Origin: Prorocentrum cordatum
Taxonomy: Eukaryota
Length of the DNA stretch: 64,000 nt
Direction: 5' to 3'
NCBI GenBank assembly: GCA_963575745.1
Contig: CAUYUJ010000026.1
Coordinates: 62,001 to 126,000 of the forward strand
Positions within the stretch are counted from its first letter, which is position 1. Every line of letters begins with the position of its first letter. The position numbers and the translations under genes are program-made. Below are positions 707-35,387 of the stretch, in pieces. The notes beneath the pieces are model-generated. The model saw nothing but the letters and a program-made list of their open reading frames with translations. It was not told where the DNA came from and made no database searches.

Positions 707-3381
707 TGTTTGCGGAAAGTGCCCCATAGTAATGAATTTGAATGAGAAGTCTGAATCGTGCCTAAACGCCATTCCTGGGACTACATCGCCGCGAGTCAAC
801 GTAATTTGCTGCGTCTTGGCAAGCCTAGATCGTGCCAGAAGACCGTTCCAGGGACATCAACACCGCGAATCAACGTGACTCTAGCGTCCTGGCAATCCTA
901 AGCCGCGCCAGAACACCATTCCTATCATACGAACCCATGCAACGGTTGCGAACTTTGAGGCGAATGTGCGCGGCGCTACGGCGAGAACCACATTTTGAAA
1001 AGGAGCAGCCCTCAATGCATCAAGCTGTTGCAAACACGCATGTGCGCGGCGCTAAAGCGACAGCCGCATCTTGAAAGCAGCCCGTCCTCAATTTGAGACC
1101 AATGCGCTCGGCGCTAAAATGAGAGCCGCATTTTGAAAGCGACCCACCGTCCATCCTTGAATCTGTTGCAATTGTGAAACTTCGGGTTCATCAATGGTGG
1201 GGAGATCTCCGGCGAAATGTCTGGCCCGCCCTACTGACGCGTCTGAGGGTGCGACAGGGAGGAGCGACAGGGAGGAGTTATCTATAAGGAATGTCAGGCC
1301 GCGTGGGCCCCTTTAAGCAGTGTGGCTCTAGCAATACAGGTTGTGCCATCTATGTGGAACCGCCCATGTGGTGCAATCGATGTTTTGCAATCTATTGTGT
1401 GCAGTATATGTTGTGCAACCTGTGTTGGCAGTACAAATGCTTCGATATAGGAAGGTCATCATATGTTGTGCAACATATGGAACAGTCTGTACGGTGCAAT
1501 TCGCCCTGCCGAAGTTGAAGTTGTCAGCCCCACTGCTCGCGCAGGCATTCCACCCACCCACCCGCATTTTTTTTTGCAACACACATTCGGCGGCGATTGC
1601 GATGAGTGCTTGGAGTTGGCTGGTGCATCTCTGCGGCCGTGCTTGCCCGCGCATGCTCGCGCGCTCAGCGGCCAGCTGGTGTGGCGCGACCGACGTGGCC
1701 GCGGTGGCGTTGACCGCTGGGCATTCCCCAGCGTGCACCTCAGTGCGAGTCGGGGTATCATGGCAACGTCGACAACGGCAGGCGCGATGATGATGGTAGC
1801 GATGCTGGTGATGATGATGAGGACAACGACGACGGCAAGGCCAGTGACCGCGCGGATGCTGATCGCGCCGACGACGATGACTGCGATTTCGCGTCGGTGA
1901 TTAAGGTTGAGGAGGGAGGTCGACATGCGCGCTCGGCCGGCGCGCGAGGGTGGCCCGCATGGTTTTATTTGACACGGATCGTGCCCCCCCCCCAGCGCGC
2001 GCACGCAAGTGCGTTCCAATGATTTCGGCGCGCGGCGCGAGGGGCCTGTTTGGCAGAATTTAGTACACATGAGAAACCGATGGTCGTATCAAGAATTCGC
2101 GGGAGTGCGAGCGCGTGCACATTTGAAAATTGATGTTGCATGTCCATGTGTTTGTTTATATGTTTTCGGGAATTTCGATTTTGAATTCCTTCCGAACCGT
2201 GGGGTCGTTGAAGGATTTTGGCATGCGCGCGCGGCGGCGCGCGCGTGTGCACTTCGTTTCATTTGTTGCAAACGGGTTCTGGTGACAGCACGCGAGCAAG
2301 GGCGTTCGAACGATTTTGATATGCGCGCGCGAGAGGCCCGCTTGGTAGCAACTAGCGAACAGTTTGAAACAACTTATTGTTGAATGGAGAATTCGCAATA
2401 TGCCGGGCGCGAACTTTTCATAACATTAATGTTGAAACAACCATGTATTTAACAACGTACGCTTTCGGGGCGCACGATTTTGACATCTTCTCGACACCTA
2501 AGATTTTGAAGGATTCCAGCATGCGCGCGCGACGACGCGCGAGTGTGCACTTTGTCATGTTGTTGCAAAGGTTGTTGAAACATTGATGATATTGGTAAGA
2601 AGCGAGTGCGCGCATATTTTTCCCATCGGATGAACGGGGGGGCGCGATACCAGCCTGCTTGGGGTGGTATGAATTCATACTTCGGATGGACGATGGGGCA
2701 GAATCATTTGCACAATGCAATACGAAAAGGGGAGCCGTGGATACCCGGGTGGTGTGTGGGGGGGGTAGATCCTAATTAAAAACAAATCAGTGTGGTGAAA
2801 TAAGTGGTTTGAGATTTTTGGGGTGCGTAACTCATATGTCGCGAACTATGCCTTAAAATATAGGTTGCCCAACAAATGTCGTACAACATATGTTGTGTAA
2901 TCATGGTGGGGCGGGGAAGGCGGCAACAGACCCTGTGACCGACAGACAGGTGAAGACGACAGGCGGCGACGAGGCAGCGACGGGGCGGCGACGCTGGCCA
3001 CATAGCCGCCAGACCGACGACACGGCCCAGACGACGGGCGGCGACGAGGTGGCGACGGGGCAGCGACGGCGACCACCCAGCCGCCAGACCTAAGACAGGG
3101 CCCGTTTCCTTCGAACAGGAGTTAGACCCCCTCAGTGCAAACACTGTTTGGGGAATGGCGTAGGCAGAGGAGGAGGAGGAGGAGGAGGAGGAGGAGGAGG
3201 AGGAGGAGGAGGAGGAGGAGGAGGAGGAGGAAGGAGAGGAGGAGGAGAAGGAGGAGGAGGAGGAGGAGAGTGAAGAGGGTGAGGAGGAAACGCAAGGGAG
3301 CAGCATCGAGCATCGGCTCGCGCAAGTCTTACTCTTGTTTGTTCTACTGGTGGTCTCGCTCTGCCTCTTGGTGCGCTGCAG

Positions 3382-3478
3382 GTGACGGGGTGCGACTGGC
3401 ACACGGACGGCCTAAGGCAGGGCCGCAAGCACCCGTTCACGCTCCTGGTCGGTGTGGCGCTCTCCGACACCACCGAAG
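3382..3478 (+). CDS. PhyH-family 2OG-Fe(II) dioxygenase, internal exon A (HxD motif)
   Basis: Translates VTGCDWHTDGLRQGRKHPFTLLVGVALSDTTEG (WHTD iron ligands, then the F-x-L-L-V-G-V-A-L-S-D strand). Acceptor GCAG|G at 3381, donor GAAG|GC at 3479. Joins in phase with 16150. Confidence 0.85.
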
Positions 3479-4417
3479 GCCCGATCCTTCGCGGCGCTCT
3501 GTGTTTTTTCTTGTGCGTGCGAGTATTTTCTTATTCTCGTGCCTACCGTCAGAGACTTTGGCTTAGCGTGTCGCTCCGCCGCCACGCTTTGGGCCCGGCG
3601 CGTTATCCTTTCTCCCATTCCCAGGCATCAACGTCCCGAGCTGTTCTCAGCCTCCCGCCCCGCGGAGCGGAGCGACACGCTACCCGCTCGCAGGGCATAG
3701 CGTGTCGCCGGGGCCGCCGCCACGACACGCTGAGCACAAGTCCCTGCTCGCATCGCTGCTCCCAGGGTCCAAGACTGCTCGTCTGGGAGGGCTGTGACCC
3801 CCTCCCTTTGGAGTGCGAAATTTGGCGTGTGTCCGTCCTTACCCAGAGATTCGATGTCGTGATTTGTTCAATGCGGGGTCCCCGAAGTCTCGACCCATTT
3901 CCCAGCACCAGTTTTTCATCCTGAGTCTATGTTTGACGCTCGGGGTGGCTACAGGCCGAAGATCGAGAAACACCTCCGACTCGATTTTTTCAGTGCGTTG
4001 GAGGTCTGGGCATCTCGCAACACCACTTCGAGTCTTCCGTGTCCGCTGATCCTCTTCCCGTGCCCGAAACCGGCGACACGCGTGCCCGCCCCTGCCAGGG
4101 CCTGCGGCGGCGGCGAAGGCCGGGGTGCCTGCTGCACAACGTCCGTGGCGGTGGCTCAGCGAAGCGCGCTCGGTGTGGCGACTCTTTCGGGCAGCGCCCA
4201 GAAGGCAGTCGCGTGCGACACCACTCCTCCTCCTCCTCCTCCTCCTCAGCCGCCGTTTCGCAGCGCGGGGAGGGACTTCGGCGCGCGAGGCGAGCCCGAC
4301 GAGCTACCGCGTTCACACGCGGGGCTGCAGCAGGGCAGGGGGCCGCGGGGAGGGGAGGGGAGGCATGTGTGGCGCGCGCATGTGGTGCACATCGTGGTGA
4401 GCAGCACGAACGTCATC

Positions 4418-5180
4418 ATGCGCGTTGTCACGTACAACCCCATGCACGCCTCGTACCACGATAGGATTACATATATAAGTACGACGCTGAAGGACTGGGA
4501 CGTCATTATCTTATCTGGTGCTAGTAATCGCGCCCTCGATGATCAGCCAGCCCAGCAGCACCATTTCGGACACCATTGGGGAGTCCAGCTTGGCTACAAA
4601 AAGGGGCGGCTGACTAGCTCGGCGTGCGGGGTCAGCTTTCTTGTCAAAAGTAACCTGCCCACGCAATCCCTCCACACGGTGATGAACCCCCCCGCAGAGC
4701 TTCAAGGTAGAGTAGGGGGCATCCGACTGCAGACAAAAAATCTCGACACGGCTATCTTTGGGGTGAAATTGCTCGCAAAATTACTAAGTGGCTGGACGAA
4801 CAGATTGACAAGCTGGGAGTCAGGACCAACATTATTGTCGGCGGCGACGTCAACTCAGATTTTGGAATTTCCCGAGATCGAGACGGCAGCGTCCAGACAA
4901 CTAAGAGTATCAGCCTCGGCGGCCATCGTCCTAAGCTTGAAAATCAGAACGGTCTCGAGTTCCGAGATTTTTGGTGAGCGCAACCAGTTATTCATAGCAT
5001 CGGCGAGTTGCAGAGTGAATGACACCTTCTTCGGCCCACCGGCGGTCAAAACCGCATCGACCACATTGCTTTCGCAGTAAATGCACGACTTCAGCTACGC
5101 CATTGCACAGCACTTACACCTGCTGGAAAAACTGCAAACTATCAAAGCTCGCGGCCACAGAGATCACGTCCCTGTTGGAT
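4418..5180 (+). pseudogene. APE/EEP endonuclease domain of LINE ORF (frameshifted)
   Basis: MRVVTYNP start, DVIILSG, CGVSFLV, IVGGDVN (GDVN at 4843-4854), RIDHI (5053-5067), RDHVPV (DH at 5162-5167). The canonical EEP motifs are in order but spread over different frames. Confidence 0.85.
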
Positions 5181-5444
5181 TCGAGTTATACATCAGCTTC
5201 TTCCATCATCGGTCTCAGAGACATCGAGAAGCTAGACCAGACCGAAGCGCTCTTATCATATGCCTGACGAAAATGCTACAAAAGAAGAGAGCTCTTCGAT
5301 CATATCGGCCAGAATATATCCGAAGTTGGGGAAGACTCTTTCCAGAAAGGCCGTCTACAAAAACCACCGGACGCATACTGGGGCATCTTCGGTCTGTGTG
5401 TCCGCCAGGCCTTACTCGAGACCTTTCCGGAGCAACCCCTGTAT

Positions 5445-7010
5445 GTGGACGACATGTATGAGCACATGCGCGAGTGCCGCATGCACATGCTGAGCAAGAG
5501 GAGGGAGATGAGGGAGCAGATGGTGGACAGCAAGGGAGAGGCGGAGTTTTTTAAGGTTTGCGAGGACCTTAAGGAGATCACAGCGTGTATAAAAAATAAG
5601 AAAGCAAAACCTCCTTCGGACGAGAGCGCGGATTTAGCAAATCAGATTTGGGAAGCATACGTGGAGAAACGCTATTCGGATCTGCATCAACTACGAGTGC
5701 TCTACCAGGGCAACGGCAGGGGGCCAAAACGTCGGTTTCACTACAGTCCCAGAACCAATTGGAATAACAAAACGCGGGAGGAGGAGTTGGGGAGGGCGGC
5801 CAAGGATGGAGGATTAGCAGGTGTAAAAATAAACTGGAAAGACGAGTTCAGTCACTATAGGTTCGACTGTGAGGATTCCGAGCTCGCCTATGTAGATGCT
5901 GATCTTCTCCACCTTGTACAAGAGGATCGACGTGCTATGCTACGGTACTGCCGACGTGCGGCAAAAAGACGTGCTTATCCAAGTTGGGGCCTACCCACGG
6001 AAGCAGTATGGTTACTCCTGCAGCCAGATGTCAACCTTGAGTCTCCAAATCAGTTGAGCGAGATGATTGCGCACAAGAATTACAGACAAGCTCAAAACAT
6101 TGAGGAGGAGGAGGAGGAGATGGAGAAGTTTACTACGGAGTACACATATAGGGTGGGCAGGAGGCTGTTGATGGGATGGACCAGGGGAGAGGGGCTCGGG
6201 GCTCTCGGACCAGATGGAGCCGCCAGACCACCAGAGGCACCGCCGGTGGGAGACATGCTGCAGTTCCGTCGGGAGGTGCGGGCAGGGCTTGGGAGCCGAC
6301 AGTCTGTTAGACAATTCTGTTTGACAATTCTGCCGTCGTCTCCCGTGTCGACCAGCGCGAGCGCCTGCCGCCGACGGGGCCTCGCCATTGAAGAGCAGCT
6401 GAGTGCTGAGACATACGTGTTTGAGAAGGTGCTGCAGGATTATCCTGTTCACATCCGCAGGTGCCAAGCCATGCCCCTGGGCAGCTACAGGTCCCTGAGC
6501 TTCTCGAGTGACAAAGCAAACGGCAAAAACAACATTTGTGGCAACCGCATAATGCATTGTTACGACGCCTTCTCCATGGCCTGGCACTCTGGGACCCCCT
6601 CCAGAACCACTGGCGCATGGGCACCTACATGGGCGCAGGGGGGGATAGCACACCGTAGCAGAGAGAGCAGCACCACAATCATCATGTGTAACAAGTGGAG
6701 GGCTGAGTGTAAAGAGAACAGCCCCATCGTGAGCAACTACGATTGCACTGACGCCTTTGCCGCTACAGAGAGACACCGACTTGAAGTGCAGGCAGAAGAG
6801 CAAGCTTGCCCCGAGGACGCACCATGCGCTGTCGCCAGTGTGCGCCAGCAGACGATGACCATAGAGACGTCCTATGACACTTTAGATATTCGTTCTATTA
6901 CGGGATCACAGATGGGATATACCACGGCACCTCGAGATTTTATGAATACCTACAACAAGGAGGTGGAGGAGTGGAGAATGGGGGGGCGGGGGCACGGAGA
7001 ACACATATTG
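5445..7010 (+). pseudogene. LINE reverse transcriptase, N-terminal part (subdomains 0-4) with embedded G-patch-like motif
   Basis: KRRAYPSWGLPTEAVW (0), DKANGK..GNRIMH (1), QGGIAHRSRE (2), YDCTDAF at 6738-6758 (3), GSQMGYTTAPRDF from ~6903 (4). G-patch-like VGRRLLMGWTRGEGLG...G...P...RAGLG at ~6150-6296. Confidence 0.8.
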
Positions 7011-7113
7011 TTTTTTCCCAACCATCCTGTGGTGTTGGGTCCTCGTTTTGAAGAGACAGCGCCCCGCGTCCCACCTCCTCCTCCTCCTCTCTCCTCCCCC
7101 TCCTCCCTCCTCC

Positions 7114-7159
<46 letters not shown>

Positions 7160-7217
7160 GTCATCATCATCATCATCATCATCATCGTCATTGTCATCGT
7201 CGTCATCGTCATCGTCA

Positions 7218-8095
7218 TCACCCACTTCGGCACACCCCTCACACGTTTCGTGGCCCCATAGGGAGCTCCACCGAAGGCCCGAGGGCTGCCGCCCGCATGC
7301 GTCCCCTACACCCATTTCGGCACACCCCTCACACGTTTCGTGGCCCCATAGGGAGCTCCACCGAAGGCCCCATGGCTGCCGTCCGCATGCGTCCCGCACA
7401 CCCATTTCGGCACACCCCTCACACGTTTCGTGGCCCCACAGGGAGCTCCACCGAAGGCCCCAGTGCTGCCGTCCGCATGCGTCCCGCACACCCATTTCGG
7501 CACACCCCTCACACGTTTCGTGGCCCCATAGGGAGCTCCACCGAAGGCCCCATGGCTGCCGTCCGCATGCGTCCCGCACACCCATTTCGGCACACCCCTC
7601 ACACGTTTCGTGGCCCCACAGGGAGCTCCACCGAAGGCCCCATGGCTGCCGTCCGCATGCGTCCCGCACACCCATTTCGGCACACCCCTCACACGTTTCG
7701 TGGCCCCATAGGGAGCTCCACCGAAGGCTCATGGCTGCCGTCCGCATGCGTCCCGCACACCCATGTCGGCACACCCCTCACACGTTTCGTGGCCCCATAG
7801 GGAGCTCCACCGAAGGCCCCAGTGATGCCGTCCGCATGCGTCCCGCACACCCATTTCGGCACACCCCTCACACGTTTCGTGGCCCCATAGGGAGCTCCAC
7901 CGAAGGCCCCATGGCTGCCGTCCGCATGCGTCCCGCACACCCATTTCGGCACACCCCTCACACGTTTCGTGGCCCCACAGGGAGCTCCACCGAAGGCCCC
8001 AGTGCTGCCGTCCGCATGCGTCCCGCACACCCATTTCGGCACACCCCTCACACGTTTCGTGGCCCCACAGGGAGCTCCGCCGAAGGTCCCAGTGG
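7218..8095 (+). repeat. 90-bp tandem array, ~10 units
   Basis: Unit CACCCATTTCGGCACACCCCTCACACGTTTCGTGGCCCCAYAGGGAGCTCCACCGAAGGCCCC...GCATGCGTCCCGCA; near-identical copies. Confidence 0.95.
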
Positions 8096-8132
8096 CGCAG
8101 TCCGGGACGCAAGGTCCCAGTGCGGGTCCCGG

Positions 8133-9556
8133 TCCTACCTGGGACGCAAGGCCGAGTGGGGCGCGGAGGAGCGGGAGTACGACCAGGTCGGCGGCGCCTT
8201 CGGCCGGATGCCCATCGTGATCCACCTGGGGGACTTCCTGCAGCTGAAGCCGACGGGAGGCAAGGTGTCGCTCATCTCCAGCTTCGAGGAACTGGCGGCG
8301 GCGGGCATCAACCTCGCACCAGAGTACCAGGCAGTGATGAAGCTCTTCTGCAACACGCCGCTGTGCTTCGAGCTCCAGGCGTCCAACCGCTTCAAGGACC
8401 CGAAACTCAGGGACCTCATGGCGTTCCTGCGCAAGCCGGGGAAGCAGGTCCCGCCGGCCATCCGGGCCACGTGGAACGCCATGCAGCTGAAACCCGATGA
8501 TCGTAGACTCCGGGAGGACAGGTTCCAGAACGGCCACATGATCGGGTCCTATTGGGACACCGTGGCGCGCTGGATGAACATGCGTGCCCAGCGGGACGCG
8601 GACGTCCTGAAGAAGCCTCTCTTCCTCGTGCAGGCCGCCGACAGGTCTGCCCCGACGATGAGCAGGAAGGACGCCGCCAAGATGATGAACTGTGCCAGCC
8701 CGAAGAACACCGGTGGCATGCGCGGACTGCTCCCCGGTGCACGTGGGCATGCGGATCCGGCTCCTGGAGGCGCTGGACCTCAAGAACGGCCTCGTCAAGG
8801 ATGCCGAGGGGCAGATCGTGCACATCGTCGTGGACCCTCGAGATCGGGGCGACGTCGACAAGGCCGAGAGAGACGGGGAGAAGAGGATCTATCTAAAGCA
8901 CTTGCCGCTGGGGTTCTGGGTGCGCATGGAGAAGTACGCGAGCGCGCCCTTCGTGGATGACCTCGAGCGCCACGACGAGAGCCTCACGGGGGACCTCGCG
9001 GGCCCGCTGGTGTTCATCGAGCCCCGCACGTCGGAGCCGTTCACCTTCCGCGCTTCCAAGGTCACCCGGACGGGCTTCCCGTTCTCGCACGGCAGGGTCA
9101 TCGCCACGGTGGCGTGCCAGGGGCGCACCATGCGAGAAGGCGACGGGGCGGGGGAACGGCGCTCCGGGGACGGCCAGACCTCCGAGGCGCGAGCAGTCCG
9201 CAGCCATCCTTCGGTCTTGTGGACTCTCGCCCTGGGCCGTCGGCTGCCTGGCGCACTGCTCCCTCGGCCGACGTCGCCCAGGCGTGATCCTGGACTGCGG
9301 CCGCCACGAGGTCGGGGACGGCGAGAAGGAGGACGACGACTGGTGGCTGGAGCTCTACGCGCTGCTCTCGCGCGCCACGCGCCACGAGGACCTCCTGCTC
9401 ATGCGGGTTCCGCGCGTCGAGTTCTTCCTGGCCGGGCCGCCGGAGGGCTTGCGCAAGCAGCTGGGGCAGTTTGCGGCGCGCGCGAAGCGGTGCAGGAGGG
9501 AGGCGACGGCCCTCGCCAGGGAGCTCGGCTTCACAGAGTTTATCCGCGAGGCCTGA
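8133..9556 (+). pseudogene. Pif1/SF1B-like DNA helicase, C-terminal half (RepHel-type), one frameshift and one intron
   Basis: FGRMPIVIHLGDFLQLKP (motif III), LQASNRFKD (IV), VGMRIRLLEALDLKNGLVKDAEG, RTGFPFSHGRVIATVACQGRT (V), LYALLSRAT (VI). Frameshift near 8735; GC-AG intron at 9140-9281. Walker A/B and the Rep domain are absent. Confidence 0.85.
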
Positions 9557-10351
9557 CCTGAGGAGCGGCCCGCCCCAGCCGCGCCTTCTCTTGGCTGTCC
9601 GACTGCTTGGCCTCGCGCCGCGGACGACTCGCGCGCGTCGCTTTGACCCTCTCGGGGCGATCAGCGCGCGTCGCGCAAACTCCGCATTGCGCTCTGCCCA
9701 GCGCGTCGCCCGCCCCTCGTCGCTCTGCCTGGCGGCCAGAGCCACGCGCGCTACGAGTCAGCCAGCAATCACTCTCTGATCCGCTCAGCGGACGAACCGC
9801 GCGCGTCACTGCGACCCCTTCGGGGCGACCAGCGCGCGTCGCGGGGGCTCCGCCTTGCGCCGCGCCCGCAGCCTTGGTCTTTGGAGTGCGCGGGCAAAGG
9901 AGATGGAAAAAATGAGGGGGGGAAGCGAGCGCGATCCTCGTGTGTGGCGTGCCGACATGGGCGTCGCGGCGCGCGGGCGCTGCCGTCGGGGTTCCCAGGG
10001 AAGCCCCCTGCAGAGGCGACGCTCAGAGTCACGAGTACCGAGAGTCACGCAGACCCAAACTGTTCACAGTCGTATACATACATTTACACTGGGCGTATCC
10101 ATGCACGCATTTATGCGAATAGAATCAATCGCGCGCAGATTCATCCATAATCAGACTCGCTCGCGATCCGACTCGCACGCGCTCGAGCTTTCATATTCGG
10201 ACCTATCGTCTTCGTTCGTGTTGTGTGCACTGCCACGCATTTCGGCGCACCCCTCATGCGGCTCGTGGCCCCATAGGGAGCGCCACCGAAGAAGATATTC
10301 ACAATTGCGGTACTCTCAACTGCATATGGTTGGGTCCTTCGCCAGGCTAAT

Positions 10352-10618
10352 TTAACTGCCGGCCCTCGCCAATCCGAGCTACCCCCTATAGACGCCCAGC
10401 TGAGCGTGTTCATGGACGATATCACGAAGAGCACAGTTATTGAGGAGGGGGCATCAGCGGCTAAGGTCACAGACGTTCTGAACGGTAGCGCATCTAGATT
10501 AGAGAGCTGCCTGGCCAATGGGCAGTGGACGCTCAACCCTGCTAAGGCGAATCATCTGCTTGATCCGCAGGGGGGGGGGGGGGGCGACGCTATCAGACAG
10601 CGCGCCGATTGAGACGAT
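10352..10618 (+). pseudogene. LINE RT catalytic segment (FMDD) between two insertions
   Basis: LTAGPRQSELPPIDAQLSVFMDDITK...WTLNPAK. It is in frame with the 5445 ORF once 7011-10351 is removed. Confidence 0.8.
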
Positions 10619-10619
10619 A

Positions 10620-12165
10620 AATTAGCATGGCGAAGGACCCAACCATATGCAGTTGAGAGTACCGCAATTGTGAATATCTTCTTCGGTGGCGCTCCCTATG
10701 GGGCCACGAGCCGTATGAGGGGTGTGCCGAAATGCGTGGCAGTGTACACAACACGAACGAAGACGATAGGTCCGAATATGAAAGCTTGAGCGCGTGCGAG
10801 TCGGATCGCGAGCGAGTCTGATTATGAATGAATCTGCGCGCGATTGATTCTATTCGCATGAATGCGTGCATGGATACGCCCAGTGTAAATGTATGTATAC
10901 GACTGTGAACAGTTTGGGTCTGCGTGACTCTCGGTACTCGTGACTCTGAGCGTCGCCTCTGCAGGGGGCTTCCCTGGGAACCCCGACGGCAGCGCCCGCG
11001 CGCCGCGACGCCCATGTCGGCACGCCACACACCTGGTGTGCGGGACGCATGCGGACGGCAGCACTGGGGCCTTCGGTGGAGCTCCCTGTGGGGCCACGAA
11101 ACGTGTGAGGGGTGTGCCGAAATGGGTGTGCGGGGCGCATGCGGACGGCAGCCATGGGGCCTTCGGTGGAGCTCCCTATGGGGCCACGAAGCGTGTGAGG
11201 GGTGTGCCGAAATGGGTGTGCGGGACGCATGGACGTGGGGCAGCACTGTGTGAGGGGTGTGCCCGGTTGGGGCCTTCGGTGGAGCTCCCTATGGGGCCAC
11301 GAAACGTGTGAGGGGTGTGCCGAAATGGGTGTGCGGGACGCATGCGGACGGCAGCCATGGGGCCTTCGGTGGAGCTCCCTATGGGGCCACGAAACGTGTG
11401 AGGGGTGTGCCGAAATGGGTGTGCGGGACGCATGCGGACGGCAGCACTGGGGCCTTCGGTGGAGCTCCCTGTGGGGCCACGAAACGTGTGAGGGGTGTGC
11501 CGAAATGGGTGTGCGGGACGCATGCGGACGGCAGCCATGGGGCCTTCGGTGGAGCTCCCTGTGGGGCCACGAAACGTGTGAGGGGTGTGCCGAAATGGGT
11601 GTGCGGGACGCATGCGGACGGCAGCACTGGGGCCTTCGGTGGAGCTCCCTGTGGGGCCACGAAACGTGTGAGGGGTGTGCCGAAATGGGTGTGCGGGACG
11701 CATGCGGACGGCAGCCATGGGGCCTTCGGTGGAGCTCCCTATGGGGCCACGAAACGTGTGAGGGGTGTGCCGAAATGGGTGTGCGGGGCGCATGCGGGCG
11801 GCAGCCATGGGGCCTTCGGTGGAGCTCCCTATGGGGCCACGAAACGTGTGAGGGGTGTGCCGAAATGGGTGTGCGGGACGCATGCGGACGGCAGCGCTGG
11901 GGCCTTCGGTGGAGCTCCCTGTGGGGCCACGAAACGTGTGAGGGGCGTGCCGAAATTGGTGTGCGGGGCGCATGCGGGCGGCAGCCATGGGGCCTTCGGT
12001 GGAGCTCCCTATGGGGCTACGAATCGTGTGAGGGGTGTGCCGAGAGCAGAGGCAAGGAGGGGGAGGAGGGAGGAGGGCGAGGAGAGGAGGAGGAGGAGAG
12101 GAGGTGGGACGCGGGGCGCTGTCTCTTCAAAACGAGGACCCAACACCACAGGATGGTTGGAAAAA
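10620..12165 (-). mobile_element. Helitron2/Helentron-like non-autonomous element, family 1 copy B
   Basis: Same termini as copy A, reverse-complemented (AATTAGCATGGCGAAGGACCCAACCAT...GGATGGTTGGAAAAA). 10620-11030 is the inverse of 9940-10352. 90-bp array; AA/TT insertion context. Confidence 0.8.
11035..12042 (-). repeat. 90-bp tandem array, ~11 units (inverse of 7218-8095)
   Basis: GGGGCCTTCGGTGGAGCTCCCT recurs at a 90-bp period, with one aberrant unit near 11230-11270. Confidence 0.95.
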
Positions 12166-13330
12166 GCGCGACAGGGTAAAGCTCTTGGAGAAATGCGCGC
12201 ACTAGGGCCGCACTTGCCGAGCGGGCAGGGCATGTTAAGCGAGGTTCTTCGGAGGCGCCAGGCTGCCCGTCAGGCTTGGCGACCGTGCGGATGCTCCCCG
12301 ACGTCCTCCACAGCTAAATGCATCCGCCGATCTATGTTCCAGGCATTCGTGGTAGAATCAGCGTTGAGTGGATTATTCGCCTTCGTGATCCCAGAGAAGT
12401 TCGTCGGCATCTTAGACCAGGCCCTTGGGAAGTTCGCGCGGGCTTGATCCAAAGGGGAGATGAGCTGGGAGACGGGGGAGGGGGGAAAGCGCTGCAGGAC
12501 CACAACATACGTGTTCAGAGCCCGGGGGGTCCCAAGTTGCGCAACACAGTTGAGAGTTAGTCGTATTCGAAATTGCCTCCGATGGGCGAAGTATCCAGAT
12601 GATCATCAGGCGGTAGTTGCTGCTGTGTTTAGCACCGCTTGGATGGGCCAGGCCCCCCGATTATCAGCCGACTTTCGAGTATGTAGCGACTCGACTCCTT
12701 GGGCGAAACAATAACTTACCGACCTCGATCACCTTGCATCTGTCGGCCCCGCGTTTGCCGAATGGTACCGAGCGAGGGGTGACGACGTCCGCCTGCTGCG
12801 AAGAGGGGGCCCAGAGAACGAGATGTTTTTGGAAACGGACCCTGCGTACTTGAACGCCATCGAGAGGCACGGGGAGGTGGAGAGCGACATAGAGGGGGGT
12901 GAGGAGCAGACGATGGAGGAGTACTCTAAACCCTACTGGTGCGACCACGCGAAGGAGGAGGGGGGGGGGAGAGAGGCGACCTGTGGGAAAAGGTTCACGA
13001 GTGCAGCAGGTCTGATTGCCCACCGTCGCGAGGCACATGGAGTTACCCCTCTCTGGAGCAAAATCATTATCACCAACCGGTGCCCTTGGTGCAAGAGCTG
13101 TTTCGTGAATAGAGCAGGCGCGCGGGGCCGCGGCAGAAGGGCCGCCCTGAGATTCGGCAAGTGCTTCATGGATCAGTCGAAGCGGGGCCGCGAACTTGAG
13201 ATCCCCGAAGTCCTGGACTGTGGCGTCTGTTCCTTCTCGGCTCAAAACTTTGAGAGTTTCCAGGGGCGCGTTCGCCAGCATCTGCCAGGTCCACAGTCGG
13301 TCGTCGAATCATTTGCACCGGATAGCGGGG
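12166..13330 (+). pseudogene. LINE RT thumb and C-terminal C2H2-type zinc fingers (frameshifted)
   Basis: RALGPHL (YLG-equivalent), EVLRRRQAARQAW, FQAFVVESALSG, TPWAKQ. Then C...CGKRFTSAAGLIAHRREAH (12940-13038), CPWC (13081) and CGVC...RQH (13219). Confidence 0.75.
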
Positions 13331-13336
13331 GCGAGG

Positions 13337-14113
13337 ATGGCGCGGAGAGCGAAGAGGCAGGCAGGAGACGGTCCTGGCGAAGAACGGGACAAGAAGGAGG
13401 CCATGCAGGAGTTGTCGCGCGGCACGGGCGGCAAGGCGAGAGACGGCGAGATCGCAGACATGCGGGGGGCCTTGGTGACGGTGCAGAAGTTGATGCTGCG
13501 CAACAGCCAGGAGAACAGAGACCAGATCAACGGGATTTTCGACTTCTGGCTGGTCCCAGGATCGTCGAGCATGGTCGCCGCTGGGGCCGACGCAGGCCAA
13601 GACTACAACAACGCGGTGAAGAAGATGGGCCGCGGGCGCGGACAAGGGCCCCCGCGCGTGCACATCGCACTGTCGGTGGTGGAACAGGCGGCGGAGGTGC
13701 TCGACCAGGGGGGCAAGTTGCAGGCGGAGAGCAAGGCCATCCTCACGGAGTGGGTGGGCATGGCCAACGGGGAGCACGGGCAGAGGCTCGTGGACGCGAC
13801 GTTCAGCATGTTCAGGATCAAGAAGGCCTACCAGCGCGAGAGCGACATGGAGGAGATGTTCAAGGTCATGTTCGGGATCAGGCCGCTGGTGGACTTCAAG
13901 ACGGCGCTCAGGCTCGGGCAGGCAATTCCAGAGGCCGTGGCTCAGGTACGCCAATTTCAACCAGCGCTCCTTCGAGAGGCCCTGAACCACGCGTGGTTCC
14001 TGCCAAAAGGCGCGACGCCGATGGGGGCAGGGCGGAAAACAGAGCTGGAGAGGGTGGTGGAGGCGCAGCTGAAGCAGCTAGTGAAACAGGGCACCCTGAC
14101 GAAGAAGCAGTAG
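13337..14113 (+). CDS. Intact 258-aa ORF downstream of RT within the retroelement; function unknown
   Basis: ATG at 13337 to TAG, uninterrupted, strong GC3 codon bias and protein-like composition (VQKLMLRNSQENRD...FWLVP...YNNAVK...GPPRVHI...FRIKKAY). Lies between the zinc fingers and the 3' UTR/tail. Confidence 0.65.
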   Translation: MARRAKRQAGDGPGEERDKKEAMQELSRGTGGKARDGEIADMRGALVTVQKLMLRNSQENRDQINGIFDFWLVPGSSSMVAAGADAGQDYNNAVKKMGRGRGQGPPRVHIALSVVEQAAEVLDQGGKLQAESKAILTEWVGMANGEHGQRLVDATFSMFRIKKAYQRESDMEEMFKVMFGIRPLVDFKTALRLGQAIPEAVAQVRQFQPALLREALNHAWFLPKGATPMGAGRKTELERVVEAQLKQLVKQGTLTKKQ

Positions 14114-16149
14114 TTGTAAGGCGTAGGCACAGCCAGGTCGTGATAGAAATTGCTCACGACCCGAGGCGACAGCAGATACCCAGGAGTTTGGCAGCAGGTG
14201 GCAGCGAGCATGCGACGAAACTCTTGCAGCAGGTAAGAGAATATCGCAGCGAGCTACGCACTTTACTTCAGTTTGACAGTCTTAGACATGATGCCGCCTC
14301 TGGCGGCAACGGCGCGCCTCCATAGAGAGGTAGCAGGCGCCTGAGCTATAGGGGGGAGACGGCTCAGGCCCAGGGCATCCCCTAGCTGAGCTAGGGATGG
14401 CCCTGGGCCTCCACGGCCGCCCTCCTTTTTCATGCCCCGAGGGATCTTCCCCGCCGACGGGGCATCGTGCGCGGTCCTTGCGCCGCCGCGTCGCCTCTTG
14501 CCGCGGCGGCCTGCTGAACCTGCAGGCGGCCCAGCCTCCATATGTAACGGAGGGGCTACCGATCAGTTGAGAGATGACAGACTGATGGCCCCCGACTGAG
14601 CACCACCACCACCACCACCACCACCTCCTCCTCCTCCTCCTCTTTCTCCTCCTCCTCCTCCTCCTCCTCCTCCTCCTCTTTCTCCTCCTCCTCTTCCTCC
14701 TCTTTCTCTTTCCTCCTCCTCCTCCTCTTCCTCTCCTCCTCCTCCTCCTCTTCCCGTCCTCCTCCTCCTCCTCCACCTCCTGCTCCTCCTCCTCCTCCTC
14801 CTCCTCCTCCTCGTCCTCCTCCTCCTCTCTTATTTGACACCTCTCGCCGACGAGCTCTCAGGGGGACTATTTGGGCCGCCTTGGGGCTTTCGTGGGCTCC
14901 TGTGCGGTAGTCCCGGGGGTCCCCTGGGGCCCTGTTCGGTGGTCTTGGGGCCCTCTTGGGCCGTCTTGGGTACATTTTGGCTGCCTGGGGGGTCTCTTGG
15001 GGCCGTCGTGGAGTCATTTTCGGACATTATTGGGCCCGGTTAGGCCGTCTTGGGTCCCCTCGGATGCCCTCTTGGGCCAGCTGGGGACTTTCTTGGGGCT
15101 GTCCTGGGCCGTCTACGGGCCCTATTGTGACGAGCGAACAACACACACCGATACCCACAGGAGCGTCGGAAGGAGGAGGACTGGCCATGGGTATGGGTGC
15201 GGGTTGTCGGCCCCTGGGGGAAGCTCCCGTTCGAGCGGGGACCCCCATCCGACAACACGCGCCCATAGCCCCCTCCGCCCCCCCTATGGGTATGGGTGCG
15301 TGTTGTTCGATCGTCATATTGTGGCTCTCAGTGAGCTTCTGTGGGCCTTTGAAGACCGCAAGTGGGCCAATCTTTGACCGAAGGGCGTAGAAAACGGAAA
15401 ATATTCAGCAAACAAAAGGACATCAGCAATTCTGGCTTCTCGAAGGCCTCCTGGAAAGCGTCTTTGGGGTGTCTCAGGCCTGTTGGTGTCCTCTTGGGGC
15501 ATATTGGGCGCTTCTCAGTGGCCGTTGGGTGCGTCTTGACGCGATGCTGAACCACCTTGGCGGCCTTGGTGGTCTTCCTGGGCCGTCTTGAAAGACTCGG
15601 AGTGCCTTGGAGAGCCCCAGGGAGGCGAGGGGCCGCCCAGGAAACCTCGGGAGATGGGGCCCATGCGCGCAGGTGGACGTGGGGAGAGGGGGGGATGGGC
15701 CCCGCAGAAGACCAACCGGAACTCTGCCCTGCAGCTCTCGGCATGCTACCATGCCTCGACGTGCCAGGGGGAGAGGTGGCGGGTTTTGGCGTCGCCTTCG
15801 CTCGCTGTGTGTCTTGGAAAGCTCTGATCCCGTCGATTGCCCGCATGGTTCCAGCGGCAGCCGAACGCGCTGCAAGTGCGGACAACGGGCGAGAGACGAC
15901 GGACGGCGGACGACGGACAAGGCAGATGGACGACCGACGAAAAAACACGGACGCAACGACGACGACGACGACGGACGACGACCACGACGACGACGGTTGA
16001 CGACGGACGACGGACGACGGACGACGGACGACGGACGATGGACGACGGAGGAGGGACGACGGTCCACGGCGACGACGACGGACGACGACCACGGACGACG
16101 GACGACGACGGACGACGGCCGACAAGCACGACGGACGCGACGATTCGAG

Positions 16150-16226: not shown

Positions 16227-17175
16227 GCGGCCACCCCCTGCTCTTTCAGCGGAGATGGTCTTGGCTTGCGCCGCGGCTCGAAGGAGGGTTTCGAGGCAGT
16301 AAAGCTGCACGACCATGTCATGTCGGAGCTCCGCGCAGAGCTCCGACAGTTGATGCTCCTGCCGCTTTTTTTCGGCGGCGGGCCCAGGGGGGAAGAGATA
16401 AGGGGCGGGCCTTCTCAGCAGGCTCGGAGGTCCCCATGCCTTCTGAGATGTTTTCTAAGCCTTCCCTGAAAACACTAAAACAACTTCTCATAAGACCGGA
16501 GGGTTTCTGAGAAGCCCGCCGCGTCCTGAGAGGGCCTTCTCCTTCTTACTTTTACTTCCCCCCTAGCTCGCCGCCGAGTTTGTTTTGCTCTTCTTAGGCC
16601 TCTGGGAGGCCCCTGCGCCGCCGCGGCGGGGGGTTCCTTTTTGAGTTCGGGCCCGGGCGCGCCCATGGAACTGGCCCAGGGGCCGATTTCTGAGCCCCTC
16701 CGATTGGCTGCGCGCAGAGTGACGGGGGTAGGGGGAGGGGGGAAAGGCTTCGTAGAAGGAGGCCGCTTCTTAGAAGGCGCCTGCCCCTACATCTACAGAC
16801 AAGGCCCGCACCTTCCTTCTAAGAGGCAGGGGTGCTTCTAAGAAGCCTTCCCCCCCCCTCCCGCTACCCCCCTCTGCGCGCCGCCGATCCGAACCCAGAC
16901 CCCATGGCCTCGTGACAAAAACACGACGGACGGGCCTTTAACATTTTCTAGGGTTCTGGAGGCCCTCATATTGGACCCTAGAAGGGGCTGTCTCGCACGG
17001 CTCGGAGGGAGCAGGGCGGCTCCAGGGACGTCTCGAGACCCATGGGGGGGGGGCGGTCCTCGCAAACGGAGGTTCCCCGCGGATCTTTCTGGGGTCGGCG
17101 CCGGAAGCCCCTCATCACACCACAGGCGGCGCCTTGTGTCGTCGGCGCCTCCAGCGCGCGGATCACTCTTTGTGA

Positions 17176-18020: not shown

Positions 18021-20015
18021 AAATTGTTCACTGCGTGGAGCTCCCCATATGTGCATCTATTCGCATGGACCTGTCCGCCGTGAATGTCTAGGCGCAAGAG
18101 CTTTCGAATATAAACGGGCTTCAGTTGTGACGGTCTGGTCATGAATCTAACTGAGGATGAATTGGAGTATGAATGAGCCTCAGTAGTACGAGCGCGTCTC
18201 TGCGCATGAGCCTGGGTCCTCCTGGGGCCTCCTGGGGCCTCCTGAAACCTACTGGGGCTTCCTGGGGCCTCCAGGAGCTTCTTGGGGCCTCCTGGGGCCT
18301 CCTGGGACCTCCTAGGGAGGATTCGTGCCCCACGAGAGGCTCAATCTATAGGAATATACGTACGTAAAATATTGCGGATTGGAGCCACAGGAGAAGGGGG
18401 CAATCTATAGGAACACGCGTAAAACACCAAGGACTCGTGCCCCAGGAGAGGCCCTATAGGAACATAAGTATTCAGGAGAAGGACAATCTATATAAACATA
18501 CGTATAACATCAAGGATTCGTGCTTCAGGTGAGGCCCAATCTATAGGAGCATACGTAAAACAAATGGGATTGGAGCCACTCCTGTTGCCTTCTGAGGCCT
18601 CCTGCTCCTGGGGCCTCTCGGGGCCTCCTGTTGCCTTCCGAGACCTCCTGGCGCTTCCTCTGGCCTCCTGGGGCCTCCTGTGGCTTCCTGAAGCCTCCCG
18701 GAGCTTCCTGGGGCCTCCTAGAGCCTCTTGGGACATCCTGTGGCCTCTTGAGTCTTTCTGTGGCCTCCTGGTGCCTCCTGGGACCTCATGTGGTCTCCTG
18801 GGGCCTCTTAGAGCCTGTTGGAGCCTCTTGTGGCATCCTGGCGAGAATCTGTGCCAACGAGTCTGGCCACCGATCAAGACATCCTCAAAATCTGGTCCAC
18901 CTGGGGGGTGAAAATGGGCGCCTCGCTCGAGACATCCTCCAATCTGCTCCGAAAGCGAAGGATGATGGGACAGAAAATAGTCAAACCGCTTGAGGCATCC
19001 CCACAAAACGGCCGCGAACGGGACCGTGAGATAACCCTTGGCGGCTCCCCTTAGGGGGGTGAAAGTGAGCGCCTCGCTCGAGACATCCTCCTTTTCTGCT
19101 CCGACAGCAAAGGATGTTGGGACAGAAAACAGGCAAACCGATTGAGGCATCCCCACAAATCGGCCGCGAACGGGACCGTGAGATATCCCCTGGCGGCTCC
19201 CCTTAGGGGGGTGAAAATGAGCGCCTCGCTCGAGACATCCTCCAAATCTGCTCCGAAAGCGAAGGATGTTGGGACAGAAAACAGGCAAACCGCTTGAGAC
19301 ATTCCCACAAAATGGCCGCGAACGGGAACGTGAGATAACCCCTGGCTCCTCCCCTTAGGGGGGTGAAAGTGAGCGCCTCGCTCGAGACATCCTCCTTTTC
19401 TGCTCCGACAGCAAATGATGTTGGGACAGAAAACAGGCAAACCGATTGAGGCATCCCCACAAATCGGCCGCGAACGGGACCGTGAGATAACCTCTCGGCG
19501 GCTCCCCTTAGGGGGGTGAAAATGAGCGCCTCGCTCGAGACATCCTCCACATATGCTCCGAAAGCAAAGGATGTTGGGACAGAAAACAGTCAAACCGCTT
19601 GAGACATCCCCACAAAACGGCCGCGAACGGGAACGTGAGATAACCCCTGGCTGCTCCCCTTAGGGGGTGCAAATGGGCGCCTCGCTCGAGACGTCCTCCA
19701 AATCTGCTCCGAAAGCGAAGGATTTGGGACAGAAAACAGGCAAACCGCTTGAGGTATCCCCACAAAACGGCAGCGAACGGGGCGCGCGTGAGTCTCAGCA
19801 TGAGTAAGTCTGAGTAGGAGTAGGTCTGAGTATGAGTAGGTCTGAGTATGAGTAGTTTGGTGTGTGAGAGTAAGTCTGGGTATGAGTAAGTCTGAGTGTG
19901 AGTCAGTCTGTGTATGAGTAAGTCTGGGTATGAGGAGGAGAGGGGAGGAGAAAGAGAAGGAGGAGAAGTCGGCGGCGTCCAAGAAATAAGAAGAACCATA
20001 TTAGGATATGGGGAA
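18021..20015 (-). mobile_element. Helitron2/Helentron-like element, family 2 (copy D) with 152-bp array
   Basis: On the - strand: 5' TTCCCCATAT... and subterminal ATATGGGGA-GCTCCACGCAGTGAACAATTT. Same terminal architecture as family 1 but different sequence. Contains a 10-bp (TGAGTAAGTC)n tract and a 152-bp array. Confidence 0.6.
18890..19785. repeat. 152/153-bp tandem array, ~6 units
   Basis: CCCTTAGGGGG recurs at ~19048, 19200, 19352, 19505 and 19657; two unit variants alternate in part of the array. Confidence 0.95.
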
Positions 20016-21258
20016 TTAGCCTGGCGAAGGACACAACCATATGCAGCTGTGAGTACCGCAGTTGTGAATATCGTCCTCGGTGGAGCTCCGTATGGGGCCA
20101 CGAACTGCGTGAGGGGCCTGCCACAGTGGTGGTGGTGGTGGGGAACCGCATGCGGGCACCCCTGCTGGGGCCTGCGGTGGAGCTCCCTATGGGGCCACGA
20201 AGCGCTGCCCTGGGTGGGGGAACCGCATGCGGGCACCCCCACTGGGGCCTACGGTGGAGCTCCCTGTGGGGCCACGAAACGTTGCCCTGGGTGGGGGAAC
20301 CGCATGCGGGCACCCCCGCTGGGGCCTAAGGTGGGGCTTCCTATGGGGCCACGAAGCGCTGCCCTGGGTGGGGGAACCGCATGCGGGCACCCCCACTGGG
20401 GCCTTCGGTGGAGCTCCCTATGGGGCCACGAAGCGCTGCCCTGGGTGGGGGAACCGCATGCGGGCACCCCCACTGGGGCCTACGGTGGAGCATGGTGGAG
20501 CTCCACTGGGGCCTTCGGTGGAGCTCCCTATTGCTACGAAACGCTGCCCTGGGTGGGGGAACCGCATGCGGCACCCCCACTGGGGCCTTCGGTGGAGCTC
20601 CCTATGTGGCCACGAAACCCTGCCTGGGTGGGGAACCGCAATGCGGGCACACCCACTGGGGCCCAACGGTGGAGCCCCCTAGGGGGCCACTAAGCGCTGC
20701 CCTGGGTGGGGAACCGCATGCGGGCACCCCCAACTGGGGCCTTTCGGTGGAGCTCCCTATGGGGGCCACGAAACGCTGCCCTGGTTGGGGAGACTCAATG
20801 TGAATCACACCCCCACTGGGGCCTTCGGTGGAGCTCCCTATGGGGCCTCGAACCGTGTGAGGGGTGTGACGACATGGGCGGTGGGGACGATGATGATGAC
20901 GATGATGATGAGGAGGATGTGGATGAGGATGATGCTGCATATGATGATGCTGATGGATGATGGGTGATGGTGATGATTGGTGACGATGGGGGGGAAGGGG
21001 GGTGATGAATGATGTGATGAATGATGATGATGATGAGATGAGATTGATGATGATGATGATGAGATGGGATGATGATGAATATGATGAAGGAATGATGATG
21101 ATGATGAGGATGATGATGATGATGATGGAGTGCGGAGAGCAAAGGCAAGGAGGGGGAGAGAGAGGGGCGGGGAGGAGGAAGGAAGGAGGAATGAGGTGGG
21201 ACGCGGGGCGCTGTCTCTTCAAAGCGAGGACCCAACACCACAGAATGGTTGGGAAAAA
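20014..21258 (-). mobile_element. Helitron2/Helentron-like non-autonomous element, family 1 copy C (77-bp array)
   Basis: AATTAGCCTGGCGAAGGACACAACCATATGC at 20014 and ...CCCAACACCACAGAATGGTTGGGAAAAA ending at 21258. (GAT)n microsatellite and 77-bp tandem units. Confidence 0.8.
20075..20870 (-). repeat. 77-bp tandem array sharing a ~35-bp core with the 90-bp array
   Basis: TGGGGCCT at 20166, 20243, 20320, 20397 and onward; core GGGGCCTTCGGTGGAGCTCCCTATGGGGCCACGAA. Confidence 0.9.
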
Positions 21259-28625: not shown

Positions 28626-28808
28626 CGGCGGCGAGCGAGAAGGAGAAGGCCTTCTCAGAAGGCTCGGAAGTCCCCCGGCCTTCTGAGAAGTTTTCTTATC
28701 CTTCACCAGAGACAGAAGAAAGCTTCTCAGAAGGCGCGAGGGCTTCTGAGAAGTCCCGCCACCTGAGAAGGCCTTCTCCTTCTTATTCCCCCTCTTCGCT
28801 CGCCGCCG
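28626..28808. mobile_element. ~190-210 bp MITE family (TIR CGGCGGCGAGCGAG); other copies at 16372-16577, 31184-31390, 33617-33819, 53766-53974, 54731-54933
   Basis: Terminal CGGCGGCGAGCGA / TCGCTCGCCGCCG with internal CTTCTCAGAAG/CTTCTGAGAAG quasi-palindromes; six recognisable copies in both orientations. Confidence 0.8.
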
Positions 28809-33268: not shown

Positions 33269-35387
33269 TATCCTTTAGTTTTTGCAAGCCGGGGTGGGTG
33301 GGGACCCCCCCCCCGCTCCCCTCCCAAATTGGACTCCAACTGGGCCCCCCCAGACATCCTTGCCAAAGGTCCCCCAGCTCGTCCGGGACCTCCCAGGGCG
33401 CTTAGCCGGGTCCTTCCAGCAGGCCCCATGCGATCAGAGCGGTGATCAGAGAGGCCGAAGAGAGACCCAAGACAGCACAAGAGCGCTCCAAGAAGGACCC
33501 AGATGGCCTCCAGAGGCCACCTAGACAGCCCAGGAGGCCCTCAACAGGGCTCCCAGAATGCAGAAATCCCTTCATTCCCTGAGAAAGCCGTGCATTTCCA
33601 GCACATACATTTGTGGTCGGCGGCGAGCGAGAGGGGAACAGTGAGCAGGAAAAGGCCTTCTCAGAAGGCGGCGGGCCTTCTCAGAAGCCCCCGCGCCTTC
33701 TGAGAAGTGCCTTCTGCGTCTTCGGGGAAGGCTTAGAAAACTTCTCAGAAGGCCGGGGGACTTCCGAGCCTTCTGAGAAGGTCTTCTCCTTCTCACCGTC
33801 CACCCCTCTCTCGCCGCCGTCGATTGTTCCGTCGAACGTACAGCAGATACGTAGACTGTTTGTAAATCCTACGAAACATCTATGTATTTGTCGCAGAGCC
33901 GGCGAACATTGCAATTGTTGGGTCAGTCATTTCTGTAGTCGATCTTTTACTCGAGGCGTGCGGGGGTCACGGTGTGCTCACGTCCTCGTCGGGGAGGAGT
34001 CCCGGACTGGCGGTTTGGGCTTGCATGCGGGGGGCGCGCGGAGCAGAAAAGAGCTGCCCTACTCGTCGTCGCCGCTGCCGTCGTCAGCGCTGCTGCTGCC
34101 GCCACCGGCGTCGTCGCCGCCGTCGGCGTCGCCGCCGTCGTCGTCGTCGTCGTCGTTCTCGTCGTCGTCGTCGTCGTCGTTCTCGTCGTCGTCGTCGTCC
34201 TCACCAGCGCAACGTTCGAAGGGGATGGGCTCAGGGGGGTAGCATGTACTACCCCTTGTCGCGCATTCATCGCTGATGGGGGCCCGATAGCCCACCCAGC
34301 CTGGTAATTGGCTGAGGAGGTTCGAACGGGCTTTTCGTTGAAATGATCTAATTATGGGGAAACTTCGAGGCCAATGCTTTTACAAAGTTCTACTTCAACG
34401 TTGCTAGGATTCGGAAGCTTGGAAACAGTTTGGATAAAGTTTGACGGCCAAGAATGTCCGAATATCCGTAGCGCGCGTGTGGTATTTTCGCGAACTCCCG
34501 AATGTGTGTTCGAACTGTTTCCGAACTTTGTCCAAACTTTCTTTGACCTTCTTCAGAATTTAGACACTTGGATCGAACTTTCCCTACACTTGTTCTTGAT
34601 CCTCTTCCAAACTCTGCTAAGATATTTTCCGCTTTTTTCGAACTCCCCCTGAAGGCTTGAACTTTTTTCGAGCTCTTCCTTTCCTTGGTTTCCGAACTCG
34701 AACTTCTGGCCCTCCCTCCGCCCGAGCTCATGGCCTGACTCTATCTCTCTCCAGGAAATCCTCCTTTTTCCCCCATCAGCCAGCTCCGAGCCCAGCCCAA
34801 GAACGTGCGCATTCGCTGTTGGCCGCCTGTCGCCGCGAGCCAGTCCCCGCCTGTCGTTGCCCCTCACGGACGCCCCCGAGCCCGAGCCGTGACAGAAATC
34901 ACGACGGGAGGCGTTCGGCCATTTTCGGCCTCCTCATGACGCCAACATCGCAGAGCGGATTCCGTTCGGAAAGCAATTTCGTTTCGGATTTCGAAGTGAC
35001 TTTCGTGTGGACTTCTTTGGCCAGGAATGAAGACTATCAAACATCCCCGTGAGATTCACTTTGTTTTTCGCTTGCCGTTTCGGTGTTATGCGTTGACAGG
35101 AATCCGTTCAGAAATCCGCTGCAGCACGTCAGCAAGTTCGATGCAGTGAGCCTCTGGGGGCCCTCGCCCGGCACCGGGACCGTGCACACACGGTTCGGGG
35201 ACGGAACGCCGCCTCGGCCGCCGGGCCGCCGTCGCCGCCGCTGCCGCCGCCGTCGTCGTCGTCACCGTCGTCGCTGTCGTCGTCGTCGTCGTCGTCGTCG
35301 TTCTCGTCGTCGTGGTGCGTCGTGGTGTGTCGCGGCGGCGGCGGCCGGCGCCGGTGGCGCCAGGCGGCCCGCTGCCCCCCTGAGCAG

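Follow-up and report, generated by a model that had tools for sequence, protein, structure and literature searches.

Long interspersed nuclear elements (LINEs) with an APE-type endonuclease (EN) usually carry a first open reading frame (ORF), ORF1, upstream of the ORF encoding EN and reverse transcriptase (RT), or carry no ORF1 at all, as in RTE. LINEs have this gene order because scanning ribosomes favor the first ORF. Here we analyze a stretch of 64,000 nucleotides from Prorocentrum cordatum (contig CAUYUJ010000026.1 of assembly GCA_963575745.1, positions 62,001 to 126,000 of the forward strand; hereafter the window, in whose positions coordinates are given), where a LINE-like unit bears a 258-amino acid ORF (the 3' ORF) behind the gene for EN, RT and zinc fingers (ORF2). 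Among described systems, cited throughout from parts of the papers concerned, two-ORF LINEs have ORF1 5' of EN with RRM, CCHC, PHD or esterase domains (PMC4120745). L1Tc is a single AP-RT ORF that ends in C2H2 fingers, lacks ORF1 and resides in a leader-trans-splicing host (PMC5814959). Among long terminal repeat (LTR) retrotransposons, Cer1 of C. elegans produces a short mRNA that is SL1 trans-spliced, while its full-length RNA is not (PMC3315495).

The unit lies at 4248-14625 within a (CCT)n tract and contains, in order, EN, RT, three zinc fingers, the 3' ORF in the +1 frame, a structured 3' untranslated region (UTR) and a (CAC)8 tail. The initial annotation of this DNA had placed the EN start codon at 4418, the fingers ahead of a 258-amino acid ORF at 13337-14113, an RT-finger frame open across that ORF to 14325, and hairpins plus a (CAC)n tail at the end of the unit, all of which we confirm. 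The features are listed below, where L001 is a metagenome locus with a homologue of the 3' ORF, P0095, P0099 and P0153 are homologous proteins, GC3 is GC content at third codon positions, and pI is the isoelectric point.

4225..4247, plus strand: left (CCT)n tract, into which the unit probably inserted; (CCT)n continues in a longer array at 14624-14827
4248..4417, plus strand: putative 5' UTR, 170 nt, too short for ORF1; 4364-4492 matches a second copy, read as P0153
4418..5190, plus strand: putative APE-type endonuclease with five frameshifts; seven motifs in the expected order, in alternating frames; start conserved in P0153
5268..7011, plus strand: linker and RT domains 0-4 in a single open frame; tblastn against the L001 RT gives E 5e-20, 30% over 185 amino acids
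10353..10616, plus strand: RT domains 5-6 with FMDD; stop at 10610
12164..12942, plus strand: RT domain 7, thumb and linker; stops at 12445 and 12712; 27% to L001 over 372 amino acids, E 8e-23; matches P0095 and P0099
12943..13283, plus strand: three C2H2-type zinc fingers, partly decayed; same fingers in L001; Pfam zf-C2H2 only at E 0.021
13309..13336, plus strand: candidate internal splice acceptor, AG 11 nt before the ATG, weak in the window (pyrimidine share 0.60)
13337..14113, plus strand: 3' accessory ORF, 258 amino acids, no stop, +1 to the RT frame, GC3 0.85, pI 9.8
13337..14325, plus strand: open continuation of the RT-finger frame across the 3' ORF, Arg/Gly-rich; TAG at 14323-14325
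14114..14600, plus strand: structured 3' UTR, main hairpin at 14350-14426 (38 bp); start common to P0153
14601..14625, plus strand: (CAC)8 tail, then (CCT)n

Homologues of the 3' ORF were found behind finger-bearing sequence at other loci as well. A metagenome scan returned 141 pattern matches, from which three loci were confirmed (L001, L002 and L003), all passing the hidden Markov model (HMM) of the 3' ORF family. At each of the three, 1-18 codons separate the end of a zinc finger from the start codon of the homologue, whose frame is +1 relative to the finger, as in the window. L001 has RT, thumb and fingers upstream; its RT has a Pfam RVT_1 match (E 9.4e-6) that falls short of the curated threshold, and it also matches RVT_1 clusters of the ESM Atlas, with values of 0.94-0.95. 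ORF2 parts are also present in 4 of 160 homologous proteins, N-terminal in every case (P0095, P0099, P0154 and P0153, with P0099 and P0154 forming one cluster). P0153, a P. cordatum gene model, is the closest long relative (76% alike at the protein level) and has its parts in the order seen in the window: EN start, linker, RT, 3' ORF and UTR start. Copies are multiple, as diverged contigs from run X1 (possibly the same source as the window) are 80-99% alike and cover the RT end, 3' ORF and UTR. A run X1 contig bridges 13199-13489 with 21 differences in 291 nt and no gap (93% alike), so the frame offset is not a private lesion of the window copy, and a diverged contig at 13970-14319 joins the end of the 3' ORF to the UTR.

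The loci, the fused models and the bridging contig together support the earlier proposal of a LINE lineage whose accessory protein is encoded 3' of RT. Homologues unlinked to RT had been named as the finding that would speak against it; none was seen wherever context was available, most homologues coming without any. We are highly confident that the layout and its conservation are real. The standard arrangement would consist of a 5' UTR, EN-RT-zinc fingers, a separate ORF of ~250 amino acids that starts in the +1 frame 1-18 codons behind the last finger, a structured 3' UTR and a simple-repeat tail. These data also bear on a possible host origin of the ORF, as a gene or retrogene that was picked up in a single 3' transduction or that simply adjoins this LINE copy. 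Its GC3 is host-like and most homologues lack context, but elements with RTs no more than about 30% alike share its position and frame, its family matches a mobile-element gene in diversity (column identity averages 9%), and UTR and tail follow the ORF. This explanation is largely refuted and we consider it extremely improbable.

Region 1-337 of L002, upstream of its last finger, is unlike the thumb region, which suggests that L002 is an internally deleted derivative retaining the 3' ORF. A fourth candidate (L004, from GTDB: 16 pattern matches, 1 passing tblastn) failed the family HMM and proved to be the antisense strand of a gene for an amino-acid ABC transporter; it was dropped. Four P. cordatum gene models (P0153, P0013, P0108 and P0116) fuse the 3' ORF to unrelated sequence, P0153 carrying an exostosin domain and P0108 being named a RING-type E3 ligase; these are likely annotation chimeras.

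The unit has the traits of the RTE clade in lacking ORF1, in its APE-RT ORF (APE by motifs only) and in its simple-repeat tail, and its thumb and finger region is presumably RTE-like. It differs from RTE elements by the conserved second ORF 3' of RT and by three C-terminal fingers. The C-terminal C2H2 fingers, lack of ORF1 and trans-splicing host are shared with Ingi/L1Tc; however, L1Tc is described, in the part of the source used, with RNase H, a poly(A) tail, an HDV-like ribozyme and one ORF, whereas the unit has a (CAC)n tail and a separate 3' ORF. No RNase H match was found in the stop-free L001 segment between thumb and fingers. An HDV-like ribozyme gave no Rfam match up to E 1, although a decayed or divergent one could escape, and nothing in the unit reached Rfam gathering level. 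As in L1, CR1/L2, Jockey and I elements, the unit's EN-RT RNA carries a basic, long-helix accessory protein that may serve a like role, but in contrast to two-ORF LINEs this ORF lies 3', overlaps ORF2 and matches no ORF1 type by sequence. ORF3-bearing LTR retrotransposons likewise have an extra ORF 3' of RT (PMC5718144), and a short mRNA like that of Cer1, made there by leader trans-splicing (PMC3315495), may be common ground, but both are LTR elements with Gag upstream, whereas the unit has neither terminal repeats (no blastn match between its 5' and 3' ends) nor an upstream ORF. We conclude that the unit works like an ORF1-less APE LINE, RTE- or Ingi-like, plus one added gene, and that an accessory gene behind the RT is unusual for LINEs. 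Silkworm SART1 is said to have a third ORF; a review describes two ORFs (PMC4700185). Searches of the openly accessible main-text literature, Repbase aside, turned up no non-LTR element in which a conserved ORF follows RT, and the covered parts of 10.1101/788562, PMC3956500, PMC7998251, PMC5006619 and PMC11453091 hold no precedent.

In order to characterize the 3' ORF protein, homologues were collected with phmmer, which gave 144 representatives at E <= 0.001 and 27 at 1e-10. Their median length is 242 amino acids (104/144 within 180-350), 20/144 start with M-x(0-3)-W, and the median pI is 9.0, compared with 9.8 for the window ORF; P0085 fails the family HMM and P0109 matches over 34 residues only. 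Conservation is concentrated at Y90 (120/129), H101 (105/123), H107 (98/126) and H109 (94/126), with E116, R61 and R239 as further positions and the motifs G-x-G-H-x-x-G-x-P-H-x-H and, near the end, P-x-x-x-L-E-R. The structure prediction that the initial annotation had called for gave a confident fold with AlphaFold2, comprising a disordered N-terminus, a 35-residue helix and an alpha/beta core (pLDDT 88 for the whole, 94.5 for the core), and no match to it in PDB or fold libraries. Specifically, the fold search found no match at E <= 0.001 in PDB or BFVD, which does not in itself establish a new fold. For the whole model the top Z was 7.0, to generic helix pairs over about 60 residues; for the core the best Z was 4.8, with weak ferredoxin-like rows at Z 3-4. 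Pfam gave no match to the 3' ORF and a weak, unrelated match to 1/130 members; the PDB profile search with the family was empty; the ESM Atlas held no usable match. The word-index homologue search found none for the 3' ORF and, with longer forms, 1 match among 8000 scored; longer forms of the L001 RT gave none in the same kind of search, and a PDB search for reference RTs was empty as well. In viral contigs, 22 pattern matches yielded 0 confirmed members. A HUH nuclease, suggested by a PPHxH motif, was rejected, as the motif opens a helix rather than a strand in the predicted model. Judged from sequence, the 3' ORF is a conserved member of a real and diverse protein family with a confident predicted fold.

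Taxon labels of 30 homologues comprised 5 P. cordatum, 1 Polykrikos kofoidii and 1 Pyramimonas, with 23 lacking a taxon. These labels suggest a dinoflagellate host. P0004 and the window ORF are 80% alike; P0155 groups with P. cordatum models.

Several properties indicate that the 3' ORF is probably made as its own protein. Homologues have a stand-alone size and a recurring start motif, GC3 of the 3' ORF is 0.85/0.82/0.75 at three loci vs 0.59-0.70 for ORF2, and a stand-alone 234-amino acid product occurs in a Polykrikos transcriptome assembly. The stop of the ORF2 frame lies 237-330 codons past the 3' ORF ATG (237 in L001, and past the end of the 3' ORF in the window and L002), so stop-restart coupling cannot make the 3' ORF protein and re-initiation of this kind was excluded. 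The ORF2 frame is open across most or all of the 3' ORF in the window (13337-14325), L001 (2442-3154) and L002 (338-1125). In codon shuffles this openness has P 0.05-0.07 in the window, which is borderline, and <=0.009 in L002; it is broken near the end in L001. Single values for the three loci are 0.05, 0.07 and 0.009. The open overlap would give the ORF2 protein (ORF2p) a long Arg/Gly-rich tail, for which no homology or shared peptide between loci was seen.

An alternative is an EN-RT-finger-X fusion, in which programmed +1 frameshifting or cis-splicing would attach the 3' ORF product to ORF2p as its C-terminal domain. The +1 offset at 4/4 loci, a 3' ORF frame that is open for 43-62 codons before the ATG in the window, L001 and L002, and the existence of fused protein models would all fit such a product. 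However, no slippery motif is common to the four junctions (9 invariant columns), the start motif is conserved and GC3 differs sharply, and the fused models in question come from automatic annotation and contain unrelated host domains as well (P0153 with exostosin). We regard a fusion as quite unlikely, and return to a separate protein.

Dinoflagellate mRNAs generally receive a trans-spliced leader, and an AG is present 2-11 nt upstream of the 3' ORF ATG in 4/4 loci. Among AGs within 30 nt of the ATG, the best preceding pyrimidine share averages 0.68 (n=4), as compared with 0.47 at 142 control ATGs (p about 0.001 by resampling). We tentatively propose, giving it slightly less than an even chance, that the 3' ORF is expressed via the spliced leader at an internal acceptor. 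The host leader would be joined to the acceptor just before the ATG and trans-splicing would yield a capped short mRNA, while unspliced full-length RNA would serve as ORF2 message and as template for reverse transcription. The protein could instead be expressed with no dedicated acceptor, through a promoter or ribosome entry site internal to the finger-coding region; no leader remnant is seen and the acceptor signal is weak in 2/4 loci, as this would predict. Yet even a promoter-driven RNA would need an acceptor, given general leader trans-splicing, and the AG precedes the ATG at every locus, which makes this route improbable.

As for what the protein does, the predicted build is a basic disordered N-terminus, a long helix and a compact alpha/beta core that bears one Tyr and three His, all conserved. 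Like the ORF1 protein (ORF1p), such a protein would be plentiful in the element's particle and would coat or chaperone its RNA. Its charge, size and position, and the lack of any other accessory ORF, make it plausible that it does the job of ORF1p, a proposal we hold at not quite even confidence. The principal rival to an ORF1p-like role, ahead of the +1 frameshift fusion, accepts the same element and a separate protein but sees a metal-binding enzyme or a host-modulating cargo (e.g. anti-silencing), like ORF3 of LTR elements. Residues Y90, H101, H107, H109, E116, R61 and R239 resemble a site, and the protein has no likeness to known ORF1 domains; the C-terminal fingers may already provide chaperone activity, as shown for L1Tc (PMC5814959), and downstream cargo ORFs are described in LTR elements (PMC5718144). 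On the other hand, no enzyme fold was found (best Z 4.8), the basic disordered N-terminus and family pI suit nucleic-acid binding, and the Tyr/His site is read from sequence conservation, His-cluster geometry aside. We consider an enzyme or cargo unlikely, though it is the alternative to be taken most seriously.

Taken together, an ORF1p-like role and trans-splicing would mean that an undescribed, diverse LINE clade of dinoflagellates has put its ORF1-equivalent, a protein of new fold, behind the RT, overproducing it from a trans-spliced subgenomic mRNA while unspliced RNA is copied. We offer this full scenario as a possibility only, and a rather doubtful one. A number of results weigh against our preferred explanation as a whole. 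With respect to function, 0/130 family members match RRM, CCHC, PHD or esterase Pfam families and the family has no conserved Cys; since no known ORF1 domain is matched, position, charge and size are all that an ORF1p-like role can draw on. With respect to expression, the acceptor is weak in the window and L001, each being equaled by 27.5% of the 142 controls; the test was devised after the sequences had been seen, with n=4; pyrimidines are high in any case because His/Leu/Pro codons follow the finger; and a spliced-leader remnant is absent from both the window DNA and the homologue N-termini. With respect to linkage, L002 and L003 show just the last finger upstream and no RT, 156/160 homologues gave no context and some may be host genes, and EN occurs with the 3' ORF in one other copy only, P0153, which is a spliced gene model. 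Finally, P0004 and P0155 are labelled Pyramimonas, a green alga, in EukProt, contrary to a dinoflagellate-only range; these labels may reflect contamination, mislabelling or transfer.

The boundaries and state of the unit were also examined. The EN ATG at 4418 lies 170 nt past the left (CCT)n tract, in keeping with the earlier statement that no ORF1 precedes EN, but because an in-frame ATG at 3929 opens a frame across the tract, the microsatellite is the sole mark of the 5' boundary. That frame is a 163-codon ORF (3929-4417) in frame with EN, with GC3 0.74 and no credible Pfam match. Upstream of EN, 2000-4417 on the plus strand holds two ATG ORFs of at least 80 codons, neither with a credible Pfam match. 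(CCT)n occurs on either side of the unit, and a target duplication would be indistinguishable from the array. We take the identities of the seven EN motifs to be of APE type; the frameshifted EN pieces do not score in Pfam or PDB. Between RT domains 0 and 1, at ~6012-6450, the window has about 130 extra in-frame codons that are not in L001, with a weak G-patch match (E 0.088); they may stem from a nested fragment or represent a domain of the subfamily. The FMDD (10409-10420, between two insertions described below) had been put forward as a mark of the lineage, which does not hold, as L001 has FADD. Folding of the 3' UTR beats 100/100 shuffles (z -4.3).

Removal of both insertions, as the initial annotation had advised, restores a single frame at 5268-14325 with three internal stops and no frameshift. 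At the nonsense rate of the RT, 0.6 stops are expected in the 3' ORF, giving P(intact) 0.55. The description of an intact 3' ORF beside a decayed EN/RT is thus accurate, but it does not amount to selective preservation: the probability of no stop is about 0.55, and conserved residues have been lost. Selective retention in the window copy was also rejected on 12/17 listed differences to other copies, which fall at codon positions 1-2. Intactness expected by chance, together with the substitutions H101R, H107R, P233R and A113S at family-conserved positions, indicates that the 3' ORF is decaying too. On balance we favor, by a little, the view that the unit belongs to an APE-type LINE lineage of dinoflagellates and is a dead copy, full-length or nearly so. 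With similarly modest confidence we suggest that it entered a (CCT)n tract and that neutral decay followed, in the 3' ORF as elsewhere.

The RT is interrupted by two insertions of one family, 264 nt apart.

7012..10352, plus strand: insertion A, Helentron/HINE-like, 90-bp tandem array, helicase-like remnant; its ends are placed to within a few T, and the RT frame is restored once it is removed
10617..12163, minus strand: insertion B, a member of the family of A; the ends of the two are 98% alike

Both have an 8-bp inverted repeat near both ends, and excision at T|T restores the frame in 2/2. A third family member at 20014-21258 (minus strand) has ends in common with A and B. The insertion terminus has a summed depth of about 111,000 in run X1 vs 3-4 for exact-match contigs, which makes the family an extremely abundant repeat. 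Inside insertion A, 8139-9556 is a GC3-rich, frameshifted helicase-like remnant with no Pfam match, whose motifs we take to be those of a PIF1-type helicase. HINE/DINE-1 elements have a short subterminal inverted repeat, a T-rich target, no target duplication and internal tandem repeats (PMC4067079). Insertions A and B resemble them in the subterminal inverted repeat, T on both sides, absence of target duplication and internal tandem repeats; unlike them, the inverted repeat is 8 bp, as compared with 12-15 in HINE, and no Rep domain was found. Elsewhere, an interspersed repeat of ~200 nt, 75-77% alike, occupies six places in the window (16372-16580, 28634-28810, 31185-31392, 33617-33819, 53766-53975 and 54722-54933).

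LINEs have been described as ORF1 followed by ORF2, or as ORF2 alone. An accessory gene that comes last needs another route of expression, and a trans-splicing host offers one. The present analysis assigns more than 140 "dark" dinoflagellate-type proteins of unmatched fold to mobile elements, and some public dinoflagellate gene models are probably chimeras with these elements. If the proposed expression route is true, host RNA processing would have reshaped the gene order of a retrotransposon.

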